Origin: an uncultured Thermotogae bacterium | Lineage (GTDB): Bacteria > Bipolaricaulota > Bipolaricaulia > RBG-16-55-9 > DRXL01 | Length of the DNA stretch: 64,000 nt | Direction of reading: 5' to 3' | NCBI GenBank assembly: GCA_964473325.1 | Contig: CAYYOG010000003.1 | Coordinates: forward strand, 10,478-74,477 | Part shown: piece after piece, positions 892 through 57,633 of the stretch | Layout of the letters: each line of letters opens with the position of its first letter | Position numbering within the stretch: the stretch's first letter is position 1 | The notes under the pieces: generated by a model | Database searches by the model: none | Seen by the model: only the letters and a program-made list of their open reading frames with translations | Told to the model about the DNA's origin: nothing | Position numbers and translations under genes: made by a program

Positions 892-982
892 AGTTAAGCC
901 CCCTTGTTTCTTTAGCGTTGGACCCATTATACCGAACTCTGTTGGTGACCGCTGCTGTCACTTTCTCAAGGGACACAGTCCT

Positions 983-1193
983 GTGGAAAACCTGTGGATA
1001 AAGCTGTGGAAAACCTGTGGATAACCTGTGGATAACTCCCCTCAGCTGACTTTTCCACAGGAGTTTTCCACAGGATTTCCACAGGTTTTCCACAGGGTTT
1101 TCCACAGCCCGACATTTGTATAGTATGTTCTCTTTTTGATGTTCTTAAAAATAAAAAGCGTCGACTGACCGGTCGGTCGAAAAGTTTTCCACA
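983..1193. promoter_or_regulatory. Array of 11 DnaA-box-like 9-mers (TTWTCCACA): 5 in one orientation at exactly 11-bp spacing (983, 994, 1005, 1016, 1027), 5 inverted (1051, 1064, 1075, 1086, 1098), plus one at 1185; candidate oriC DnaA-binding region
   Basis: Direct reading: tgtggaaaa / tgtggataa x5, then ttttccacag / atttccaca x5. All are within 1 mismatch of TTATCCACA/TTTTCCACA. The two blocks form a dyad around 1036-1050. Confidence 0.6.
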
Positions 1194-1260
1194 GGTTTTG
1201 GTCCCCTCTACTACTACTAGAGTATATATACTAAGTATTGTAGTAGTAGAGAACCGGCAG
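1107..1260. repeat. AT-rich tract containing a 46-bp near-perfect palindrome (ctctactactac-N22-gtagtagtagag at 1206-1251, with a perfect AGTATATATACT core) and a GTCGAC...GACCGGTC...GTCGAC palindrome (1159-1180); possible DNA-unwinding element
   Basis: Inverted repeats verified by reverse-complementing the arms. The region is markedly more AT-rich than its flanks. Confidence 0.5.
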
Positions 1261-9433: not shown

Positions 9434-12400
9434 AGCCCGTTCCCGCAGGGATGCGCTTGCTCACGATCACCGCGGGCTTGAGGCTCTCTAATCTGTCTAT
9501 AGCCCCTTTGAGCGCTGCTTCAGCGAGTACTGTCGTCGTGCGCATGAACGACGCAGCGGAGAGCCAGGACTTCGTCTCCAACGCGGCCTTGGAGATGCGC
9601 AACAGCACGCGCTCGCCGTTGGGCAAACGCTTCTCAGCAATGCGCTGGGTGACTTTCTCCTTGCCGCGCTCGAGGATAAGCTCAGCTACGCCGGCGCGCA
9701 GGGCACTTTCAATCAGCTCTCGCGTCACGGTGCTGCCCTTCTCTGCTATGACAGCCCCGGTCTTGTCCGCCACTGGCGCAGCTATCGTGAGCCCGATGAT
9801 CTCTTCACGCTGCTGCCGAATCTGACGGTTCTCCTCAAGCAGACGCGTGTTCTCCGCTTGGAACTCTTCTAATAACACAAGCTCATTGGGCAGGAACTGC
9901 GAATCCCCAGGGTCAACAATCCGCACGTTGTTGAGCATCTGTCGGATGACGAGCTCGATGTGCTTGTCGTTGATGTCGACCCCTTGGCTCTTGTAGACTT
10001 TTTGGATCTCCTCCAGGAGATAGATTCTCGTCTTATCCGGGCCAGCGATGGAAAGTAACCTATGGGGTGAGGTCACGCCCTTGGAGAGCAGCTCGCCCTT
10101 CTGAACTTTGTCGCCGGCCTTCACTGTGGGCGGGTTGGTCAGCTCAACCGTCGCCTCGTGATGGTACGCGATCTCCATGAGATCTGAATCGAACGATCTG
10201 ATCGCATCGACCTTGACAAGCTCATCGCTGAGGGCAAGACGAAAGAGGGGCTCCCCCTCTTCGACCCAGTCGCCGTCATTTTTGGAGAGCGTTATATCTT
10301 CAGTGAGCGTGAATGCCTTGTCTTCCTGGGGCTGATAGACAATGATCTGATCCTTGGTGACGATGGCGGTGCCGTCGCAGGGTGCGCGCAGCTCGATCGG
10401 TTTGGAAGCTGTAGAAAGCTGCTCCCCTGTGACGACCTTATCGCCGATATTGACCAAGCGCCGCGCGCCGTAGGGAAGCTTGTAGCGCACGCGATTGCCG
10501 GTCTCTTTCTCTTTGATGATGAGCGCTCGCTCGTCGTTCTCAATGATCTCCTCGACGGTGCCGTCTACTGTAGAGACCACCGGGGGTTCATGGAAGGGTT
10601 CGGCCAAGAGCTCGTCTTTGGTGACTTTCTGGCCGTCGCGCACGAGCGGCTTGACCCCCTCAGGGAGCGTATAGACAGCGTCGTTCTCATCGAGAATATA
10701 GAGCTTGCGAAGCTTGTCAGTCTCGATGATGTGCACGGTACCGCGGCGTGGGCTGCGCTCGTTCAGCAGAGCGCTCAGCAACACGAGGGTGTTCTTCTCT
10801 GGTGGGACAACGAGGGCTTTGGGGAGATGGAGGCGCTTCTCATCGCCGTACAGGACAACGCACTGGCGCCCGGTCTCTTGCGATTGCGTGATGTCTATGA
10901 CGATACCGCTGATGGGAGCGATCTCGCCTTGCGAGCTCCGCACGGCCTTGCGTGCCTCAAAGAGCTCTTCAGCACGGGGAAGACCCTGGGTGATATCGAT
11001 CCCAGCCACACCGCCCGTGTGGAACGTCTTCATAGTTAACTGTGTGCCGGGCTCGCCGATCGATTGCGCGGCGATCACACCAACAGCCGTACCCAGCTCC
11101 ACTAATGTATGCGTGCTCAAGTCGTAGCCATAGCAGAGGCGACAGACGCCACGACGCACGGTGCACCGCATCGGAGAGCGAATGACGATTCTCGGCCGGA
11201 CTCGCACTGTCTCGATATTAAGGGCGCGGAGCTTCTCCGCCAGCGCACGGGTGATGAGCTCATCTTGAGCGACGATCACGCGATTGGTCTTGGGATCGCG
11301 AATATCTTGTGCAGCTTTGGTGCCTACGACCTTGTCATAGAAGTCACGATTGCTGGGGGAGAGCTCAGCAGTGAGATTACCGAAGCGTTGAGTCTTCTCG
11401 CGGTCGAAGCTCTCGCCGCGCTTCATGAGCGTCTCGCCCAAAAACACCAGATCTTGGGCAAGAACCCGTCCGTAGATGCGCTCAGGGATCGTCTCCATAA
11501 CTTCGTCTGGTTTATTGAAGTAGAGGGGATCGATCTCAATACCCTCGGTGGTGCCGCAGTCTTCTTCTTTCACAATGAGCTCTTCGGTGGCGTCGACCAA
11601 GCGGCGCGTGAGATACCCAGAGTCAGCGGTCTTGAGGGCCGTATCGGCTGTGCCTTTGCGGCCCCCGTGCGTGCTAATAAAGTACTCAATGACGTTGAGC
11701 CCCTCTCTAAAGTTGGAGATGACCGGCATCTCGATGATTCTCCCTGAAGGGTCGCTCATGGGGCCGCGCATCCCCGAGAGCTGTTTCACTTGGGTAGCGC
11801 TGCCGCGCGCTCCAGAGTTGACGATCATATAGAGGGGATTGAAGGGGTGCTGAGCCAAGTTGGCCATAGTCGCTTTCGCGACTTCGTCGACAGTGCCCAT
11901 CCAGATGTCGATAACTTTGTCCTTGCGCTCTTCTTCAGTGAGCAGGCCGCGCTCGTAGCGCTCATTGAGTCTCGCGACGCGCTCGCGGGCCGCTTGGATA
12001 ATGCTATCTTTCTCTGGGGAGATGAGGCAATCCCGCACGGAGATCGTTAACCCTGATCTTGTAGCCCACGAGAACCCGATCTCCTTCAAGTCATCTAAAA
12101 GTTGGACAGTGCGCTCCAAGCCGTGCCGGAAGTAACACTCCATGATGAGATCGTTGATCGCATCGGAGTCGAAGACTTTATTGTAGTCGCGCAGATCTGG
12201 CGGGAAGATGTTGTTGAGCAAGGCACGCCCTAGGGTCGTCTCTATGATCTTCCCGTCGATACGGATCTTGATAGGCGTATGGAGAGAGATGATCTTGTCG
12301 TAATAAGCGCGCTCAGCCTCCGCGATGCTGGTGAAGGCTTTGCCCTTGCCTAGGCCGTTCTCGTCGACAGTTGAGAGATAATAATACGCGAAGATCGCGT

Positions 12401-18314: not shown

Positions 18315-18404
18315 GTGGGCTCCCCCAGCATTTGCCCAATGACTCTGTGCTGTTCGCCTTGGCCGGCCTCTGGCTGGCCAAGATAAACGTCAAGGGAAAC
18401 TTGC

Positions 18405-18481
18405 TGGTGCGCCCGGTGCGATTTGAACGCACGACCTGCGGTTTAGGAAACCGCCGCTCTGTCCAACTGAGCTACGGGCGC
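18405..18481 (-). tRNA. tRNA-Arg (anticodon CCT), CCA encoded
   Basis: Manual cloverleaf: acceptor GCGCCCG/CGGGCGC, D-arm GCTC-AGTTGGACA-GAGC, anticodon stem GCGGT/ACCGC with loop TTCCTAA, T-arm GTGCG-TTCAAAT-CGCAC. Confidence 0.85.
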
Positions 18482-18534
18482 ACGCTGCGCGTGGGCTTCG
18501 CGAACTTCATTTAAAACAAAAATAGAGTGCCCCG

Positions 18535-28159: not shown

Positions 28160-28190
28160 ATAGCCCCCTTCCCGAATCGGGAAGGGGGTT
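28160..28190. terminator. Hairpin terminator (cccccttccc-gaat-cgggaaggggg) between convergent genes
   Basis: 10-bp GC-rich stem with a 4-nt loop, read directly. Confidence 0.6.
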
Positions 28191-28205
28191 GAGGGATTTA
28201 GGTTC

Positions 28206-28529
28206 TTATGCCCTCTTGACAGAGAGTTTGCCGCCAGCCTCGATGACCTTCAGTCTCTTGCGCACCATCTCTTTCAGCTCGCGGCCAGCGCGGAAGGCCG
28301 GGACGACCTTGCTGGGCACCATCAGCCGCTGGCCAGTCTGCGGGTTGATGCGGCTGCTGCTGCGGCGCGCCCGGGCCACAAAGCTGCCAAACCCGGTAAT
28401 GCGTACGGTCTGGCCCTCTGCGACCGACTTGGAGATCGCGTTGAAGATGGTGTTGACGGCCTCGCGCGCGGTGCGCTTGGGCATGCCCGTCCTCTGGGCC
28501 ACGGTCTCGATGAGCTCTGCTTTGTTCAT
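28206..28529 (-). CDS. hup: HU-family DNA-binding protein with a basic C-terminal extension
   Basis: MNKAELIETVAQRTGMPKRTAREAVNTIFNAI…GFGSFVARARRS…NPQTGQ HU signature. Confidence 0.9.
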   Translation of the reverse strand: MNKAELIETVAQRTGMPKRTAREAVNTIFNAISKSVAEGQTVRITGFGSFVARARRSSSRINPQTGQRLMVPSKVVPAFRAGRELKEMVRKRLKVIEAGGKLSVKRA

Positions 28530-41388: not shown

Positions 41389-41480
41389 CCAGACTTCGTC
41401 TGGACTGTTCGCCTTCGTCCGGTCGGACGCAGATGAAGCTCACGCACAGCGTGCAGGCGCAGTCTGGTGGGAGGGTAGCT

Positions 41481-42537: not shown

Positions 42538-42970
42538 GCGAAGAGGAGCAGAGGGCCGCCCCAGGCTCCGCCTGGACTGTACGCCTTCGCCAGCCAGAGG
42601 CTGGCGAAGATGAAGGTCAAGCGAAGCTTGTCCAGACGAAGCCTGGGGAGGAAAGTCCGGACTCCACGGGGCAGGCCGCTCGCCGCAAGGCGAGAAGGAG
42701 CGATCCTTGGAAAGTGCCACAGAGAAGAGACCGCCAGCGGCCGGCGGCACGCGCCGCCGGTGCGGGCAAGGGTGAAACGGTGGAGTAAGAGCCCACCGCC
42801 CCGCTCGCGAGAGTCGGGGGCACGGCAAACCCCGGCCGGAGCAAGACCAAGTAAGGGCGCGTCTGAGAGTGGCCCGCTCGAATCGTGCCCGGGTAGGTCG
42901 CAGAGAGAGATGGCCCTCACCGACTCTTGGACAGAGTCGGCACAGAATCCGGCTTATGCTCCTCTTCTTT
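42538..42970 (+). ncRNA. rnpB: RNase P RNA, bacterial type A, with an extended (~95-nt) P3 helix
   Basis: Conserved regions read directly: GGAAAGTCCGGACTCC, AGGGTGAAACGGTGGAGTAAGAGCCCACC, ACAGAATCCGGCTTAT; P1 gaagaggagca/tgctcctcttc; P2 gagggcc/ggccctc. TATAAT at 42526-42531 lies 6 nt upstream of the 5' end. Confidence 0.9.
42561..42646. repeat. ~86-nt palindromic element forming the rnpB P3 extension; a second copy lies in hypF at 53880-53952
   Basis: Shares caggctccgcctgg…cttcgccagccagaggctggcgaag…gtccagacgaagYctgg with 53880-53952. Terminal inverted repeats and a central hairpin cttcgccagc-cagag-gctggcgaag. Confidence 0.7.
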
Positions 42971-43081
42971 TTTGTTCTTTGACGAACCGGGCGCTATCGG
43001 ATAGAATATTCTTTGGCGATGGAGTCCGCCGTCAACCGTCCGGGCACGTCGGACTGATGACTCCTACCTAAGACTCTTCAT

Positions 43082-52229: not shown

Positions 52230-52490
52230 TCATCGATCGTTTGGTATCCTAAGTTGCTCCAGCTCGCCTATCTCTCTAAGATACTCGAAGGTCTTCTGGG
52301 CTTCGGCTTCGTCAAGCTTACTGATAGCAAAGCCGACGTGCACAATCACGTAGTCACCGACTTGGGCTTCGGGTACGTACGCCAGATTGACTTCCTTGAT
52401 GATGCCCCCGAAGCTCACCTTGCCTGTGCGCAGGATTGGGTCATCGTTCTCGCTGATGCTAATGATCTTGCCAGGAACAGCAAGACACAT
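52230..52490 (-). CDS. hypC: [NiFe]-hydrogenase maturation protein HypC
   Basis: Starts MCLAVPGKII (the HypC MCL[AG]IP signature). AAGGGGG SD before ATG 52490. Confidence 0.85.
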   Translation of the reverse strand: MCLAVPGKIISISENDDPILRTGKVSFGGIIKEVNLAYVPEAQVGDYVIVHVGFAISKLDEAEAQKTFEYLREIGELEQLRIPNDR

Positions 52491-52495
52491 TGTTC

Positions 52496-54823
52496 TCACC
52501 CCTTACAGTGTGACGCGGCCACGATCTGTCCCAGTGCGATCCCGCCGTCGTTAGGCGGAACCCGTTGATGCCAGTAGACGCGAAAGCCCTCTGCGCGCAG
52601 CCGCGCGGCCGCTCGCTCAGTCAGATATTTATTCTGAAAGCATCCCCCGGTCAGCACAACTCGTCCTTCTCCGACACGCCGCGCCACAGCGATGATCATC
52701 TCTACCAAAGTATTGTGAAACTTCGCGGCTATCTTACCAACTGAAACGCCGTCGCGCACATCTCTGATAATGCTGAGGAGCATCGGTTCCCAGTCGAGCA
52801 CCTCGTGAGAGAGAGCGAACTCATAACTCTCGTCTGTCTCCATCCCGTGTAGGGCAAACTCGAGCTCCATCGCGGCTTGGCCCTCAAAGCGACTGATTTG
52901 TCGAAGCCCGACTAAAGAAGCAGCAGCGTCGAAGAACCGCCCAGCGCTCGATGTTGTGGGGCTATTTAGATTCTTTTGCAGCATTGTGAGCAAGGGCTTC
53001 AGCTCGTGCTCTGGGAAGCTCTGAACTGGGGCGAGATCGGCGCACTCGCGGGCCAGCGCGTCGCCGAAAAGCTCGTAGAGCACGCCGAGCGCTGCGCGTC
53101 GTGGCTCCTTGATCGCGTGCTCGCCCCCGGGGAGACGAAATGTCCGTAGATGGGCAACTCGTCTGAACGACTCTCGCGTAGCTAAGAGAAATTCTCCACC
53201 CCAGATTGTGCCGTCGAGCCCGTAGCCCGTCCCGTCCCACGAGACCCCCAAGACCGAGCCGTCCAGCTCGTTCTCCGCCATGCACGCCAACACATGGGCA
53301 TAATGATGCTGGACTCCAACTTTGGGAAGATCGCGTTGCTGCGCGTACTTTGTCGAAAGATACTCCGGGTGCAGATCATGGGCGATCACCGACGGACGGG
53401 CTTCGTAGAGGAGTTCAAAATCGCGAATGACTCTCCCAAACGCGCTGAACGCTTCGGCGGTCTCTAAGTCTCCGATGTGCTGGCTGATGAAGACGTTGGA
53501 GCTGACCGAGAGCGCCATGGTGTTCTTGAGATGTGCGCCGACGGCGAGGACGGTTCTGGGTTCAGAGCTCGTAGTTTCCAGTGTGATAGGCAGCGGCGCG
53601 TACCCGCGGGCGCGGCGCAACACCAGCTCCCGTCCCGCGACTATACGTACGATTGAGTCGTCGACATGGCGCGCGATAGGGCGATTGTGCACCAGAAAGA
53701 GATCAGCGATTTTATTAAGCTTTTGTAGTGCCTCGCGCTCGTCGGTGCAGATGGGCTCGTCGGAGAGATTGCCGCTGGTAGCAACGATGGGGAAGCCGAG
53801 CTCAGCCATCAACAAGTGATGGAGCGGCGTGTAGGGCAACATGATACCGAGATAGGGATTGCGCGGGGCAACGGAGGGACCAGGCTCCGCCTGGTCCATA
53901 CATCTTCGCCAGCCAGAGGCTGGCGAAGGCGTACGGTCCAGACGAAGTCTGGGCAGCAGCACAATCGGCGCCTCTGGGGACGTTAACAAGCGTTCTTCTA
54001 GTTCGGAGACTTCGCAATGGGCTGTGATAAGTTCTAGCGACGGATACATGAGCGCAAACGGCTTCTCTTCGCGGTGCTTGCGCTTGCGTAACTCTTGCAC
54101 GGCGTCGTCGTTGCGGGCATCGCAGATCAAGTGAAACCCGCCCAAGCCCTTGACGGCAACGATCTGTCCATTGCGAATCGCTTCGGCAGCTTTATACAAT
54201 GCGTCGTCATGTTGGGCGAGCACCCTGCCCTGGCGATCCCATAGTTCCAAGTGTGGCCCGCACACAGGGCACGCATTGGGCTGCGCATGAAAGCGCCGAT
54301 TCGAAGGGTCTTCGTATTCGGCTTGGCAGTCGGGGCACATTCTGAAGATCTTCATGGTCGTGTTCGGGCGATCATAGGGCAGGGCTTCAATAATAGAGAA
54401 GCGCGGGCCGCAGTTTGTACAGTTTGTAAACGGATAGCGATAGCGTCGGTCGTTGGGGTCAAAGATCTCGCGCAGGCAGTCGGGGCAGGTCGCAATATCT
54501 GGGAGAATAAACGCTGTCTTCTGGCCTGACTCATCGCTATGGCGAATTTCAAATGCTGTGTAGCCGACAGGGTCGAGCCACACGGACTCCAAGCTCTGAA
54601 TAAACGCGCGCGGGGGCTTGTCGCGCTCGAGTCTGCGCAAGAATTCTTCGAGTTGCTCTTTGGGCCCTTCAGTTTCGATGAAGACGCCCTGAGCAGAATT
54701 GAGCACCCAGCCCGTCAGTTTTAGCTCTGTGGCAAGACGATAGACGAACGGGCGGAAGCCCACCCCCTGCACTGCCCCGTGGATCGTGACCTTAAGGCGT
54801 ACCGCGTGCTCTCTCATGGCCAC
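52496..54823 (-). CDS. hypF: Carbamoyltransferase HypF (contains a ~25-aa in-frame insert encoded by the palindromic element at 53880-53952)
   Basis: Acylphosphatase domain (VQGVGFRPFV), two CxxC…CxxC zinc fingers, YrdC-like and Kae1-like domains (…GGCFQN…). The insert LRLDRTPSPASGWRRCMDQAEPG falls between the YrdC-like and Kae1-like domains. Confidence 0.9.
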   Translation of the reverse strand: MAMREHAVRLKVTIHGAVQGVGFRPFVYRLATELKLTGWVLNSAQGVFIETEGPKEQLEEFLRRLERDKPPRAFIQSLESVWLDPVGYTAFEIRHSDESGQKTAFILPDIATCPDCLREIFDPNDRRYRYPFTNCTNCGPRFSIIEALPYDRPNTTMKIFRMCPDCQAEYEDPSNRRFHAQPNACPVCGPHLELWDRQGRVLAQHDDALYKAAEAIRNGQIVAVKGLGGFHLICDARNDDAVQELRKRKHREEKPFALMYPSLELITAHCEVSELEERLLTSPEAPIVLLPRLRLDRTPSPASGWRRCMDQAEPGPSVAPRNPYLGIMLPYTPLHHLLMAELGFPIVATSGNLSDEPICTDEREALQKLNKIADLFLVHNRPIARHVDDSIVRIVAGRELVLRRARGYAPLPITLETTSSEPRTVLAVGAHLKNTMALSVSSNVFISQHIGDLETAEAFSAFGRVIRDFELLYEARPSVIAHDLHPEYLSTKYAQQRDLPKVGVQHHYAHVLACMAENELDGSVLGVSWDGTGYGLDGTIWGGEFLLATRESFRRVAHLRTFRLPGGEHAIKEPRRAALGVLYELFGDALARECADLAPVQSFPEHELKPLLTMLQKNLNSPTTSSAGRFFDAAASLVGLRQISRFEGQAAMELEFALHGMETDESYEFALSHEVLDWEPMLLSIIRDVRDGVSVGKIAAKFHNTLVEMIIAVARRVGEGRVVLTGGCFQNKYLTERAAARLRAEGFRVYWHQRVPPNDGGIALGQIVAASHCKG
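53880..53952. repeat. Second copy of the palindromic element, in-frame within hypF
   Basis: ccaggctccgcctggtccatacatcttcgccagccagaggctggcgaaggcgtacggtccagacgaagtctgg; matches rnpB 42561-42646 apart from internal indels. Confidence 0.7.
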
Positions 54824-55003: not shown

Positions 55004-55750
55004 ATGAAAATTGCGATCTCCGGCAAGGGCGGTGTGGGCAAGACGACCCTCTGTGCCCTTATAGCTCGAGAAGCTGTCTCGCGAGGGAAGCGTGTTTTCG
55101 CTGTAGACGCCGACCCAAACCCAACATTAGCTCTAGTCCTCGGCTTCCCTGAGGACATCACTCCCTTGGTAGAGCTGCGAGAGCTCATGGAAGAGCGCAT
55201 GGGATCGCTCGAGGGCTTTTTGCGGCTCAACCCCAAAGTCGACGACATCCCGGAGCGCTTCGCTATTGAGAAAGATGGGATCAAGCTTGTAGTCATGGGA
55301 CCAATTCGTCAAGGCGGGGGCGGCTGTGCCTGCCCGCAAAATACGTTTCTCAAGAGTCTTTTGCAGCATCTTGTGCTCGAACGCGATGAGCTCATTCTCT
55401 TAGACTTTGAAGCGGGGCTAGAGCCCCTGGGGCGCGCTACAGCGCAGGGAGTCGACGCGTTGCTCATTGTCGTTGAGCCTGACGGTGCAAGCGTCGTCAC
55501 GGCGCGGCGCATTCATAGTCTTGCTCAACAGATTGGGGTCAGAAGAATCTTTGCTGTAGCGAATAAGATCCGCGAGCCTGGGGAACTGCGCGCTATCCAA
55601 GAGAACGTAGGGATAGCAGTGATCGGTGCTCTGCCCTATAGCGAGAGCCTGCGCATCGCTGGCCCCACTTCTGTGAGCGATGCTGCAATCCGTCGTCAAG
55701 TTCAGGCAATCTTAGAAAGCGTTCAGCTGCCTTCTTCCGTGGGAAGCTGA
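55004..55750 (+). CDS. cooC: CooC/AcsF-type P-loop ATPase (nickel-insertion accessory protein for CODH/ACS)
   Basis: ISGKGGVGKTT Walker A; GGGCACP CxC metal-binding motif typical of CooC. Confidence 0.8.
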   Translation: MKIAISGKGGVGKTTLCALIAREAVSRGKRVFAVDADPNPTLALVLGFPEDITPLVELRELMEERMGSLEGFLRLNPKVDDIPERFAIEKDGIKLVVMGPIRQGGGGCACPQNTFLKSLLQHLVLERDELILLDFEAGLEPLGRATAQGVDALLIVVEPDGASVVTARRIHSLAQQIGVRRIFAVANKIREPGELRAIQENVGIAVIGALPYSESLRIAGPTSVSDAAIRRQVQAILESVQLPSSVGS

Positions 55751-55771
55751 AGAGACAAAAAGGAGGCGCCA

Positions 55772-56293
55772 ATGGAGCGGCTCTTCTGTGATCCGCGCCG
55801 CTGTGTCGGCTGTCGGGCGTGCGAGATCGCGTGTGCGGTCGAGCACACGCCCTCAAAGGACCTGTTCGTCTCGGTGCTCCATGGGGAGCTAGGGCCTCCG
55901 CGACGCCGTGTCCAGGCCGTCGGTGCGGAGCCTTATCGTGTGGCGATTGGGGGTGTAGCGCTTTCGCTGGGGTGTCATCATTGCGATCCGGCCCCTTGTG
56001 TTGACGCGTGCATTACTGGGGCGATGCGTAAAGAGAATGACCAGACCGTCTGCGATCTTGAGAAGTGCGTCGGCTGCTGGATGTGCGTGATGAGCTGCCC
56101 CTACGGCGCAATCACGCCGAGAGTGAAAGCCCTCAAGTGCGATCTCTGCCCCGATCGCCAAGAGAGGGCGGGGCGCGCTCGCTATGCGTGCGTCGAATCG
56201 TGCCCCACCGATGCGCTCTTCGCCGGGACGTTTGAAGAATTCGAAAAAGTGCTCGCACAGCCCATAGAACGGCCTTGGGAGGTGGTGCGATGA
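55772..56293 (+). CDS. 4Fe-4S poly-ferredoxin (CooF/HycB-like)
   Basis: Four CxxCxxC…CP-type cluster motifs (CVGCRACEIAC, CHHCDPAPCVDAC, CVGCWMCVMSCP, CDLCPDR…CVESCP). Confidence 0.8.
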   Translation: MERLFCDPRRCVGCRACEIACAVEHTPSKDLFVSVLHGELGPPRRRVQAVGAEPYRVAIGGVALSLGCHHCDPAPCVDACITGAMRKENDQTVCDLEKCVGCWMCVMSCPYGAITPRVKALKCDLCPDRQERAGRARYACVESCPTDALFAGTFEEFEKVLAQPIERPWEVVR

Positions 56294-57633
56294 GTCCGAA
56301 AGCGAAGCAGTCGAGATACGTCATCATTGGAGCATCCGCGGCGGGGGTCACGGCCGCGGAGACCCTGCGTCGCTATGACGCCAGTGCAGAGATCGTAATG
56401 GTCTCTGATGAAAAACTTATCTATTCTCGTCCGTTGCTCTCGTACTATCTGGCGGGCAAGCTGGACGAAGATCAGTTGCTCTATCGCCCGCGTGATTTCT
56501 TTGAGAGATACAAAATCAAAGCGCTCTTCACGCGGGCTGTGGGACTCGATACTGAAAAGAGCCAAGTCCATCTGCAAGATGGCACAACAGTCGCTTATGA
56601 TAAGTTGCTCTTGGCGACGGGGGCGTCGCCGCGCTTTCCTGCCCTTGAGGGCCTTAAAGAGCGATCCGGGGTCTTCGGATTGCGCAAGCTCGAGGAGGAC
56701 GCCAAAGCGATCTTAAGCTGGCTGCCCAAGGCCAAGCGAGCTGTAGTGCTCGGCGGGGGCTTGGTCGGCTTGAAAGCTGCTGAGGCCCTTCAGGGACGCG
56801 GGCTCGCCGTCACGGTGCTCATAGACTCACCCCATGCGCTCTCGCAGATGCTCGATGAGAGCTCAGCGCGAATTTTTGAGAGAATCTTTGAGCAGAACGG
56901 CGTCACGATTCGGACAAAGGCGAAGCCCGTCGCGGTGCTGGGCAAACAACAAGTAGAAGGCGTTCAGCTCGCTTCGGGCGAGGTCTTCGCGTGCGATCTC
57001 GTCGTCGTGGGCAAGGGCGTAGATCCTAACCTCGAGCTTCTTAAAGACACGAAGCTTCGTAAAGATTACGGGGTATTCGTAGACGACTATCTGGGCACGA
57101 GCATAGAGAATATTTACGCAGCTGGGGACGTCGCCCAAGCCCGCGATGTCGTTCGCGGCGAGCCGTGGATTAATGCGCTCTGGCCCTGCGCCGTGGAGCA
57201 AGGGCGCATCGCGGCGCTCAATATGCTGGGCCAAGAGACGGTCTATCGTGGCTCGATGCGCATGAACTCGGTGCAGTTCTTTGGGGTTCCGGTGATCTCG
57301 GCTGGACTGGCTGTGCTCACACCGGGCCCCCTGGGCGGTCGTTCTGGCGAGCACGACGAGACGCTAGAGTTTCAGCCTGCCCCGGGAATCTACCGAAAGA
57401 TCTTTCTCAAGGACGACACGATCGTGGGGTTTGTGCTCGTGGGGGATGTGCCCATCGAAGCCGCAGGGGTATTGCGTATCTTGATGGAGCGGCGCGTCAA
57501 CATCGCTCCCATAAAAGAAGAACTTCTGGAGCTGGGGCCAGATCTGGGGCGAGTGCTGCCCTTGATTGTCGAAAACAAAGAGCGCTTTGCCGAGCGCGAA
57601 TTCCAAGAATTAGTACACACGGTGGGGGTGTAA
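56290..57633 (+). CDS. FAD-dependent pyridine nucleotide-disulfide oxidoreductase (CODH-associated FNOR-like)
   Basis: GxGxxG dinucleotide motifs (VIIGASAAG; VVLGGGLVG). ATGA overlap with the ferredoxin gene; GGAGGTGG SD. Confidence 0.8.
   Translation: MSPKAKQSRYVIIGASAAGVTAAETLRRYDASAEIVMVSDEKLIYSRPLLSYYLAGKLDEDQLLYRPRDFFERYKIKALFTRAVGLDTEKSQVHLQDGTTVAYDKLLLATGASPRFPALEGLKERSGVFGLRKLEEDAKAILSWLPKAKRAVVLGGGLVGLKAAEALQGRGLAVTVLIDSPHALSQMLDESSARIFERIFEQNGVTIRTKAKPVAVLGKQQVEGVQLASGEVFACDLVVVGKGVDPNLELLKDTKLRKDYGVFVDDYLGTSIENIYAAGDVAQARDVVRGEPWINALWPCAVEQGRIAALNMLGQETVYRGSMRMNSVQFFGVPVISAGLAVLTPGPLGGRSGEHDETLEFQPAPGIYRKIFLKDDTIVGFVLVGDVPIEAAGVLRILMERRVNIAPIKEELLELGPDLGRVLPLIVENKERFAEREFQELVHTVGV

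Follow-up and report, generated by a model that had tools for sequence, protein, structure and literature searches.

The window, that is, the whole stretch of 64,000 nucleotides (nt) analysed here (positions 10,478 to 74,477 of contig CAYYOG010000003.1, assembly GCA_964473325.1, from an uncultured member of the Bipolaricaulota), contains a gene for the carbamoyltransferase HypF that harbours, with its reading frame intact, an imperfect palindrome of 73 nt at positions 53880-53952. The question raised by this locus is where such a palindrome comes from and how the protein accommodates it. We propose, with a probability of about 85%, that the segment is a copy of a dispersed repeat family that settled without breaking the frame in a permissive loop of the YrdC-like domain, where it would be translated as a tolerated passenger.

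An earlier reading of this DNA, made without database searches (the sequence-only reading), had placed a palindromic element in frame in hypF; the palindrome, its membership of a repeat family and, by translation, the openness of the frame were all confirmed. The two 35-nt arms, separated by 3 nt, are 80% complementary, and on the minus strand the element spans gene positions 872-944 (codons 291-315) and encodes HypF residues PRLRLDRTPSPASGWRRCMDQAEPG. Translation continues across it (...IVLLPRLRLDRTPSPASGWRRCMDQAEPGPSVAPRNPYLG), and the tryptic peptides predicted within the insert are TPSPASGWR and CMDQAEPGPSVAPR. Read differently, the same nucleotides resolve into three separate hairpins, CCAGGCTCCGCCTGG, CTTCGCCAGCC-AGA-GGCTGGCGAAG and CCAGACGAAGTCTGG. 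RNA folding predicts one continuous hairpin for the hypF sense strand (-55.8 kcal/mol, z = -8.5) and three hairpins both for the opposite strand and for single-stranded DNA. The 25-nt core of the element, CTTCGCCAGCCAGAGGCTGGCGAAG, is present in two exact copies in the window (42585 and 53904), with a diverged third at 18358; when up to three mismatches were allowed, five matches were obtained, counting the strands separately, against an expectation of 0.00 from shuffled sequences. The hypF element and the copy at 42561-42646 have the same 23-nt core, letter for letter, and terminal hairpins that are nearly identical. A peptide common to both copies (FASLWLAK...PGGAW) had been assigned to antisense frames and taken as evidence of a peptide family; in both copies it comes from the minus strand, which for hypF makes it a shifted sense frame, and it is uninformative because near-identical DNA copies give the same peptide anyway.

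The domains of HypF follow the expected order (acylphosphatase, two zf-HYPF fingers, YrdC-like, Kae1-like), with all five Pfam families above their cut-offs; residues 11-771 align with the solved HypF structure 3vth_A (E = 5e-211), and the closest named HypF proteins come from Bipolaricaulota metagenome-assembled genomes (MAGs). The insert had been located between the YrdC-like and Kae1-like domains, which proved incorrect: the Pfam match to Sua5_yciO_yrdC extends over residues 214-404, and that to HypF_C starts at 422, so that the insert lies inside the YrdC-like domain. In an AlphaFold2 model based on 65 homologues (mean predicted local distance difference test score (pLDDT) 76.9, predicted TM-score 0.56), residues 291-315 are found between beta-strands 288-292 and 324-328, and residues 297-309 have a pLDDT below 50. 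The alignment with 3vth has a 13-column gap within the loop IVLLKKKGEKLAKG...IADDLDTLGVMLPY, which indicates that canonical HypF already has a short loop at this site, of about 10 amino acids (aa) (e.g., KKKGEKLAKGIADDLDT in 3vth). The sequence-only reading was correct in that the inserted segment is absent from orthologues, but not in supposing that canonical HypF runs straight through this point. When compared with four orthologues, including the other insert-bearing copy at a synonymous divergence (dS) of 0.17, hypF showed a ratio of nonsynonymous to synonymous divergence of 0.08-0.22, and the columns that are invariant among 65 aligned HypF sequences (query included) are kept throughout the protein outside the insert. 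The element is fixed in a loop between two beta-strands, with the frame intact, in a gene that is under purifying selection. We infer that transcription and translation of the element yield an excursion of 25 residues at the protein surface, probably disordered (a net addition of 16 aa), that would leave the fold undisturbed. The short insert of just 25 aa, without splicing motifs and with no sign of excision, led us to reject readings of it as an intein or an intervening sequence.

A scan of a genome collection, with one genome per species and TTCGCCAGCCNNNGGCTGGCGAA as the query, returned at least 80 loci. Among the matches listed, about 55 loci belong to MAGs (at least 10) with the labels Candidatus Bipolaricaulota, Acetothermia or Bipolaricaulia and have flanking modules and linkers in common; those from Bacteroidales, Akkermansia and other taxa, again among the matches listed, have only the core hairpin in common. 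An independent metagenome scan yielded 46 more loci. Complete elements have discrete sizes (69, 73, 86, 101 and 119 nt), and 15-nt palindromic terminal inverted repeats (CCAGRCTTCGYCTGG / CCAGRCGAAGYCTGG) are present at both ends of 42 complete copies. A typical forward copy consists, in this order, of hpA (CCAGRCTTCGYCTGG), a first linker (ACTGTWCGCC), the core hairpin (TTCGCCAGCC-NNN-GGCTGGCGAA), a second linker (GATGAACGT), hpC (CAAGCGAAGCTTG) followed by T, and hpA' (CCAGGCGAAGCCTGG); the alternative internal modules are hpD (CACGCGCAGCGTG) and hpE (GTGCCGCCGCAGGCGGCAC). Across all fetched loci, hpA has A-T as its fifth pair in about 120 cases, G-C in about 100 and a mismatch in about 10, a covariation which indicates that pairing within the hairpin is preserved. 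The core hairpin has a hypervariable loop, and complementary triplets are similarly frequent in it (for example, ATT 12 and AAT 12, GGA 12 and TCC 12); this balance and the covariation of the fifth pair are consistent with a hairpin-maintaining conversion and repeated flipping of the loop. Many copies lie at contig ends, and we read this as the repeats breaking assemblies. Judged from these sequence features, the element belongs to a previously undescribed, dispersed and modular family of Candidatus Bipolaricaulota (Acetothermia) with predicted hairpins, hereafter family 1. Rfam contains no family that matches the element at gathering thresholds, and with an E-value threshold only chance matches to miRNA hairpins were obtained. 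Two contigs from MAGs with other labels, L062 (Bryobacteraceae) and L064 (Candidatus Fraserbacteria), carry full Bipolaricaulota-type elements with the family linkers, and the tRNA cluster of L064 is the same as that of L048; these contigs are either mis-binned or reflect a transfer between phyla.

The alignment of HypF with its orthologues, also proposed by the sequence-only reading, revealed empty sites in relatives at 82-85% identity (P0004, P0009 and P0010). The empty state, IVLLRRRxxAPIAPSVAP, is likewise found in P0015, P0017 and P0022, and outgroup HypFs have a closely similar short loop (RRRTSEIAPAV, RRRASLSEIAPAI and others), which indicates that the empty state is ancestral. Between the conserved flanks, the variable segment measures 78 nt in the window and 30 nt in the empty orthologues, and the corresponding loop segments measure 30 and 14 aa. 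The earlier figure of about 25 added residues thus holds for what the element encodes but not for the net gain, which is 16 aa, given that the element replaces part of the ancestral loop. Identical insert DNA was found in an independent assembly from another sample (L081, run SRR8369165; protein P0001, 94% identical) whose hypF gene is 93% identical, which argues against an assembly artefact; within about 150 nt on either side of the element, the window and L081 differ at only three positions. Over the whole gene (window 52496-54823 and L081:3001-5316), divergence is mosaic, with 0-28 differences per 100 nt concentrated at gene positions 1700-2100, and suggests recombination between related strains. 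An exact scan of the JGI metagenome contigs gave no match to the query-type hypF junction. Loop length varies across the HypFs of many phyla, as it would if the segment were an ordinary lineage-specific expansion by slippage or indel, palindromic by chance, or else an assembly chimera. This explanation is effectively refuted by the exact 23-nt core, the linkers and the terminal hairpins common to dozens of dispersed copies, by the identical DNA in the independent assembly and by the folding z of -8.5.

Other filled alleles carry family-1 modules in different arrangements. In L083, 86 nt of a 96-nt variable segment correspond to an element with the order hpA-hpC-reversed core-hpA'; L084 and L085 have hpA-hpE-hpA' in another reading frame and with a left junction displaced by 4 nt; and in L088 a short remnant is left, hpA plus an hpD-like module. 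Since the outer hairpins lie at about the same codons in all family-1 alleles and L088 resembles a deletion remnant, these alleles could derive from one ancient insertion remodelled in place by inversion, gene conversion and partial or complete deletion, all the more so as the interiors of the copies in RNase P RNA (see below) flip and change their module content at a fixed site. However, the left junction of the query allele is shifted by 4 nt and its reading frame differs from that of L083, L084 and L085, the empty alleles resemble the outgroup sequence (xxAPIAP) and not deletion scars, two unrelated repeat families have also hit this loop, so independent hits do occur, and a neighbour-joining tree, which is without support values, mixes empty and filled states. 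A single insertion is a possible history of these alleles, although we give it less than even odds; the differences in junction and in reading frame speak for more than one event.

The same HypF loop also contains unrelated repeats. In L086 and its relatives it holds a different dispersed repeat (...CCCCTCCCCGACACGGGGAGGGGAG...CCCCCTTCCCGTTTCGGGAAGGGGG...), and in a distant HypF of an unrelated lineage (P0052, L135:10001-12382) it holds a palindrome made of tandem GTCGTTGG octamers and their complements, encoding the peptide GSLGRWVIG..., with further copies elsewhere on the L135 contig. The sequence-only reading had made the insertion depend on the absence of an equivalent segment from HypF proteins of unrelated lineages. 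Extra segments do exist there at the same position, but they are unrelated sequences derived from other palindromic repeats, which supports a permissive loop and leaves the insertion unrefuted. With at least three unrelated palindromic repeats accepted at one site, the loop is a permissive hot spot. The second palindromic family (GACCTCTCCCCCGGCCCCTCCCCGACACGGGGAGGGGAG...CCCCCTTCCCGTTTCGGGAAGGGGG...GGTTAGGTC), the HypF-loop insert of the P0003-type orthologues, is dispersed in the same MAGs (L086:1367-1450, L047, L056, L058, L075 and L015) and has a partial copy in the window at about 28164-28210. Other distant HypFs have repeat-like peptides at the same loop, such as PNPQSAIRNPQS.

HypF is one of at least 13 protein families that host family-1 copies in frame, including housekeeping proteins such as aconitase and LipB. 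Such copies, defined by a stop-free frame that spans the element with at least 60 codons on each side and checked with Pfam, make up about 10% of the 138 elements examined, the HypF copy included; the host proteins were identified from DNA loci. In aconitase (at one site in two MAGs), BacA/UppP, LipB, GcvT, type I phosphodiesterase (on four contigs), RecO and CtaA, a single Pfam domain spans the element or is split by it. The matched domains of DXR, ArgRS, RluD (from two sources) and a tandem ECF ABC ATPase (a fusion) have the in-frame element between them or next to them, and an IorA-like protein and an S8 peptidase also have it in frame within their open reading frames (ORFs). Copies are read in either orientation and in several frames, most often as the peptide QASLDVHLRQPxAGEGxQSRRSL. 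A 56-aa query of concatenated element peptides found one match in a protein database, whose word index is ill suited to short repeat peptides. In the hypF copy all six reading frames are open, and the one used by HypF is open owing to the GATGTAYGG variant of the linker, which is present in intergenic copies too; where the linker is the common GATGAAC, for instance in the copy within RNase P RNA, the same frame meets a TGA. We considered the open frames as a coding adaptation of the element and rejected this as unproven, as openness depends on the linker variant. Selection against disruptive insertions is a sufficient explanation for the copies within genes. The element would be a passenger, selfish or neutral, that is found within genes only if the frame is kept and the loop is permissive, with selection acting as the filter and no special coding adaptation being needed. 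Once settled, its interior could flip or be swapped between the terminal inverted repeats, giving rise to a new peptide while the gene stays unbroken.

Some copies outside protein genes are closely associated with stable RNAs. In the genome loci, 23 of the 75 multi-module elements (about 30%) lie against a tRNA gene, in nearly every case either no more than 3 nt away from it or overlapping it by no more than 3 nt (for example, L024:5756-5828, L038:829-898 and L054:1361-1430), and 29 of the 63 tRNAs in the fetched loci have abutting copies. Several copies fill the spacer between two tRNA genes exactly, as in Arg-Leu, Arg-Gly and Asp-Phe. This abutment suggests a role in RNA processing or a targeting to tRNA gene ends. 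The 86-nt copy in the window lies in the P3 helix of RNase P RNA, and because it extends P3 the Rfam alignment of this RNA starts at 42605, inside the element, and mis-assigns P1. Elements occupy the orthologous P3 position in two other species (L075 and L039), three in total with the window. The one in L075 has extra modules, and that in L039 has the same terminal hairpins as the window copy and an interior that is the reverse complement of the window copy's, which gives direct evidence for interiors being flipped or replaced in situ. The RNase P RNA is followed directly downstream by a fluoride riboswitch at window 43006-43073, L075:2896-2963 and L039:5382-5449, an order conserved in these three Bipolaricaulota genomes.

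The RNA-associated copies bear on two broader interpretations. Family 1 might be a phylum-wide structured module, targeted to the borders and helices of stable-RNA genes and acting in proteins as a flip-flop cassette, in which inversion between the 15-nt palindromic termini would exchange one loop peptide of about 25 aa for another with the frame kept; the inter-tRNA spacers filled to the nucleotide and the occupation of RNase P P3 in every species examined (three) agree with this proposal, which we regard as speculative and rather improbable as a whole. It is more doubtful still that the HypF copy has been co-opted, either through an mRNA hairpin (-56 kcal/mol) that would pause translation, affect mRNA stability or be cut by RNase III within the hyp operon, or through a loop that would offer HypF a new interaction surface. 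The hairpin on the sense strand is very stable, two strains between which hypF has a dS of 0.17 carry identical inserts, and members of the family sit at landmarks of RNA processing (the ends of tRNA genes and the P3 helix of RNase P RNA). However, about 500 nt around the insert are almost identical in both strains as a result of the mosaic divergence, so that conservation of the insert is uninformative, and for this reason its identity between the window and L081 was rejected as a sign of selection. In addition, close relatives function without the insert or with inserts that encode unrelated peptides, and the host proteins are unrelated to each other.

Several observations weigh against the proposal that the HypF segment is a tolerated passenger of a mobile family. 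Among the fetched loci, the 42 complete copies and the hypF alleles, neither a transposase nor a target-site duplication was found, nor a clean junction between empty and filled alleles, and because of this the case for mobility comes from the dispersed distribution only. In a weak test with sequences of the IS608 TnpA and the E. coli RAYT (REP-associated tyrosine transposase) as queries, phmmer detected no Y1 transposase or RAYT below E = 0.29 among 4035 ORFs of these partly sampled genomes (89 fetched loci (L001-L088) plus the window, about 0.55 Mb of Bipolaricaulota loci). The 12-nt flanks of the 42 complete copies contain no direct repeat that could be a target-site duplication, and viral contigs and plasmids gave no element matches and no sign of a phage or plasmid vector. 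The filled hypF alleles resemble replacements of about 20-25 nt and not simple insertions; with the closest empty orthologues about 15% different in protein, the exact ancestral target is not reconstructable. The HypF model is of moderate quality, and an alignment without homologous residues would also give low confidence in the loop, so the predicted disorder should be taken with caution. In the family consensus four of the six frames are open, which is not clearly above what a GC-rich composition would give and would leave any coding adaptation unproven. That copies lie so closely at the ends of tRNA genes and in RNase P P3 suggests a possible role of the family at the RNA level, beyond that of a selfish passenger, and the translation of the 25 residues is predicted from the open frame. 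As for the mechanism, the mini-hairpins contain GCGAAGC, a classic and very stable DNA triloop hairpin, which would fit recognition of, or action on, single-stranded DNA and is only a lead.

The coordinates of hypF, of the family-1 copies and of the neighbouring RNA genes are given in Table 1. Genes for accessory proteins of carbon monoxide dehydrogenase/acetyl-CoA synthase (CODH/ACS) precede hypF and hypC follows it, as in the orthologous loci. In the window (55004-57633) and in the orthologous loci L081-L087, genes for a CooC-like ATPase, a ferredoxin, a pyridine-nucleotide-disulfide oxidoreductase and CODH/ACS adjoin hypF. This neighbourhood fits the acetogenic Wood-Ljungdahl lifestyle proposed for Bipolaricaulota. 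Far from this locus, at window 970-1205, perfect and near-perfect DnaA boxes (TGTGGATAA / TTATCCACA) are densely clustered in both orientations and probably mark the origin of chromosome replication; the first 3.2 kb of the window yielded no dnaA gene.

Table 1. Positions in the window of hypF and its element, of the other family-1 copies and of the associated RNA genes
Feature	Position	Strand	Remarks
hypF (carbamoyltransferase HypF)	52496..54823	-	775 aa, intact; five Pfam domains
hypC-like ORF	52230..52499	-	Directly downstream of hypF; orthologous loci have the same gene order, Pfam HupF_HypC recorded
73-nt palindromic element, hpA-core-hpA' class	53880..53952	-	Forward orientation on the hypF sense strand
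Terminal hairpin of hypF element	53880-53894		+ coordinates
Core hairpin of hypF element	53905-53927		+ coordinates
Linker GGACCGTACGCC of hypF element	53928-53939		+ coordinates
Second terminal hairpin of hypF element	53938-53952		+ coordinates
86-nt copy, hpA-core-hpC-hpA'	42561..42646	+	Extended P3 helix of RNase P RNA
Diverged intergenic copy	41389..41467	+	hpA, linker, degenerate core, hpD-like hairpin, degenerate hpA'
Degenerate copy	18334..18400	+	Core CTTGGCCGGCC-TCT-GGCTGGCCAAG and hpC-like hairpin; 4 nt from the 3' end of tRNA-Arg(CCT)
hpD module CACGCTGCGCGTG	18481..18493	+	Overlaps the 5'-terminal base (18481) of tRNA-Arg(CCT) and runs outward
tRNA-Arg(CCT)	18405-18481	-	Family modules on both sides (window 18334-18493)
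RNase P RNA (class A)	42540..42967	+	Ends inferred from P1 and P2 pairing
RNase P P1	42540-42550 with 42957-42967		GAAGAGGAGCA with TGCTCCTCTTC
RNase P P2	42551-42557 with 42912-42918		
RNase P P3	42559-42648		Followed directly by conserved AGGAAAGUCCGG

The interest of family 1 lies in the breadth of its residence in genes, the hot spot in HypF, the copies in RNase P P3 and at tRNA genes, and the flipping in place. If the passenger reading is correct, the recurrent presence of translated selfish palindromes in essential proteins would extend to a deep-branching, uncultivated and largely thermophilic phylum. One HypF loop with at least three unrelated repeats represents a natural experiment on insertion tolerance, and the interiors inverted or exchanged in place, in hypF and in RNase P P3, point to a concrete route through which the elements could diversify protein loops and RNA helices. 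The flip-flop cassette, if true, would be a previously unrecognised generator of loop diversity, and a new mechanism of mobilisation would be possible, as no target-site duplication, GTAG tag or transposase was seen. There are also consequences for annotation: the repeats break MAG assemblies, mislead the Rfam alignment of RNase P RNA and inflate the apparent variation in protein length.

With regard to known systems, a search of a paper library yielded no report of such repeats for Acetothermia or Bipolaricaulota. In-frame insertion of palindromes of this type is already documented (Ogata 2000, Science 290:347, via PMC10969869; Di Nocera 2013, PMC3733652). Rickettsia palindromic elements (RPEs) are in-frame palindromes in unrelated housekeeping genes that encode a short peptide tolerated by the fold (Ogata 2000/2002 via PMC10969869), and family 1 resembles them as a dispersed palindromic repeat that lies in frame in HypF and in at least 12 other unrelated protein families. 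RPEs of about 100-150 bp differ from the elements of 69-119 nt found here, built from interchangeable mini-hairpins, and nearly half of the RPEs of R. conorii lie in genes, compared with about 10% here (PMC10969869). The hosts of RPEs are obligate intracellular alpha-proteobacteria, whereas Bipolaricaulota are free-living and mostly thermophilic, and about 30% of family-1 copies abut tRNA genes. RPEs are defined by homology to the RPE-1 to RPE-10 consensus sequences and by a Rickettsiales host; the comparison was made by description, and the host here belongs to the Bipolaricaulota. RPEs are found in non-coding RNA genes as well, and we know of no description of RPEs abutting tRNA genes.

[quoted passage not shown] Unlike MITEs, they have no target-site duplication in the 42 complete copies, the filled and empty hypF alleles do not correspond to a simple insertion, no parent insertion sequence was identified, and the terminal repeats are themselves palindromic hairpins. 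The bacterial interspersed mosaic elements (BIMEs) of E. coli are, as in family 1, a mosaic of several hairpin types, similar to repetitive extragenic palindromes (REPs), with conserved linker motifs; they are extragenic and differ from family 1 in sequence, host and tRNA association.

REPs themselves share with family 1 short GC-rich stem-loops, usually in inverted pairs that fold singly or as one large hairpin, and a distribution that is mostly intergenic and transcribed, with a minority inside genes (PMC3733652). The statement that elements able to remain in frame in proteins are rare outside Rickettsia was overstated, as intragenic REPs are documented in several bacteria: GTAG/CGTC REPs, as dimers or grouped repeats, encode 20-30 aa in Opitutus terrae, and others are found in Thauera, Xanthomonas and Thioalkalivibrio, among others (PMC3733652). 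Bipolaricaulota are not among the phyla named in the available excerpt of the survey by Di Nocera et al. 2013 (PMC3733652). GTAG REPs differ in that the 73-nt element contains neither GTAG nor CTAC, the family linkers reading GTAC or GTTC. As to the RAYT gene that the repeats flank in REPtrons, the IS608 TnpA and E. coli RAYT queries found none in the partly sampled genomes. CGTC REPs have a terminal CGTC, a stem of 8-9 bp that starts with A/T pairs, a loop of 4-5 nt and a CCA tail (PMC3733652); in family 1, hpC alone has CGTC before it and GTCCA after it, with a stem of 5 bp and a loop of 3 nt, and the hypF copy is without hpC. The recB genes of two Xanthomonas species, which have different REPs at about the same site, resemble the HypF hot spot (PMC3733652). 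Although membership of family 1 in either of these groups is not supported, its behaviour matches that of RPEs and of intragenic REPs.

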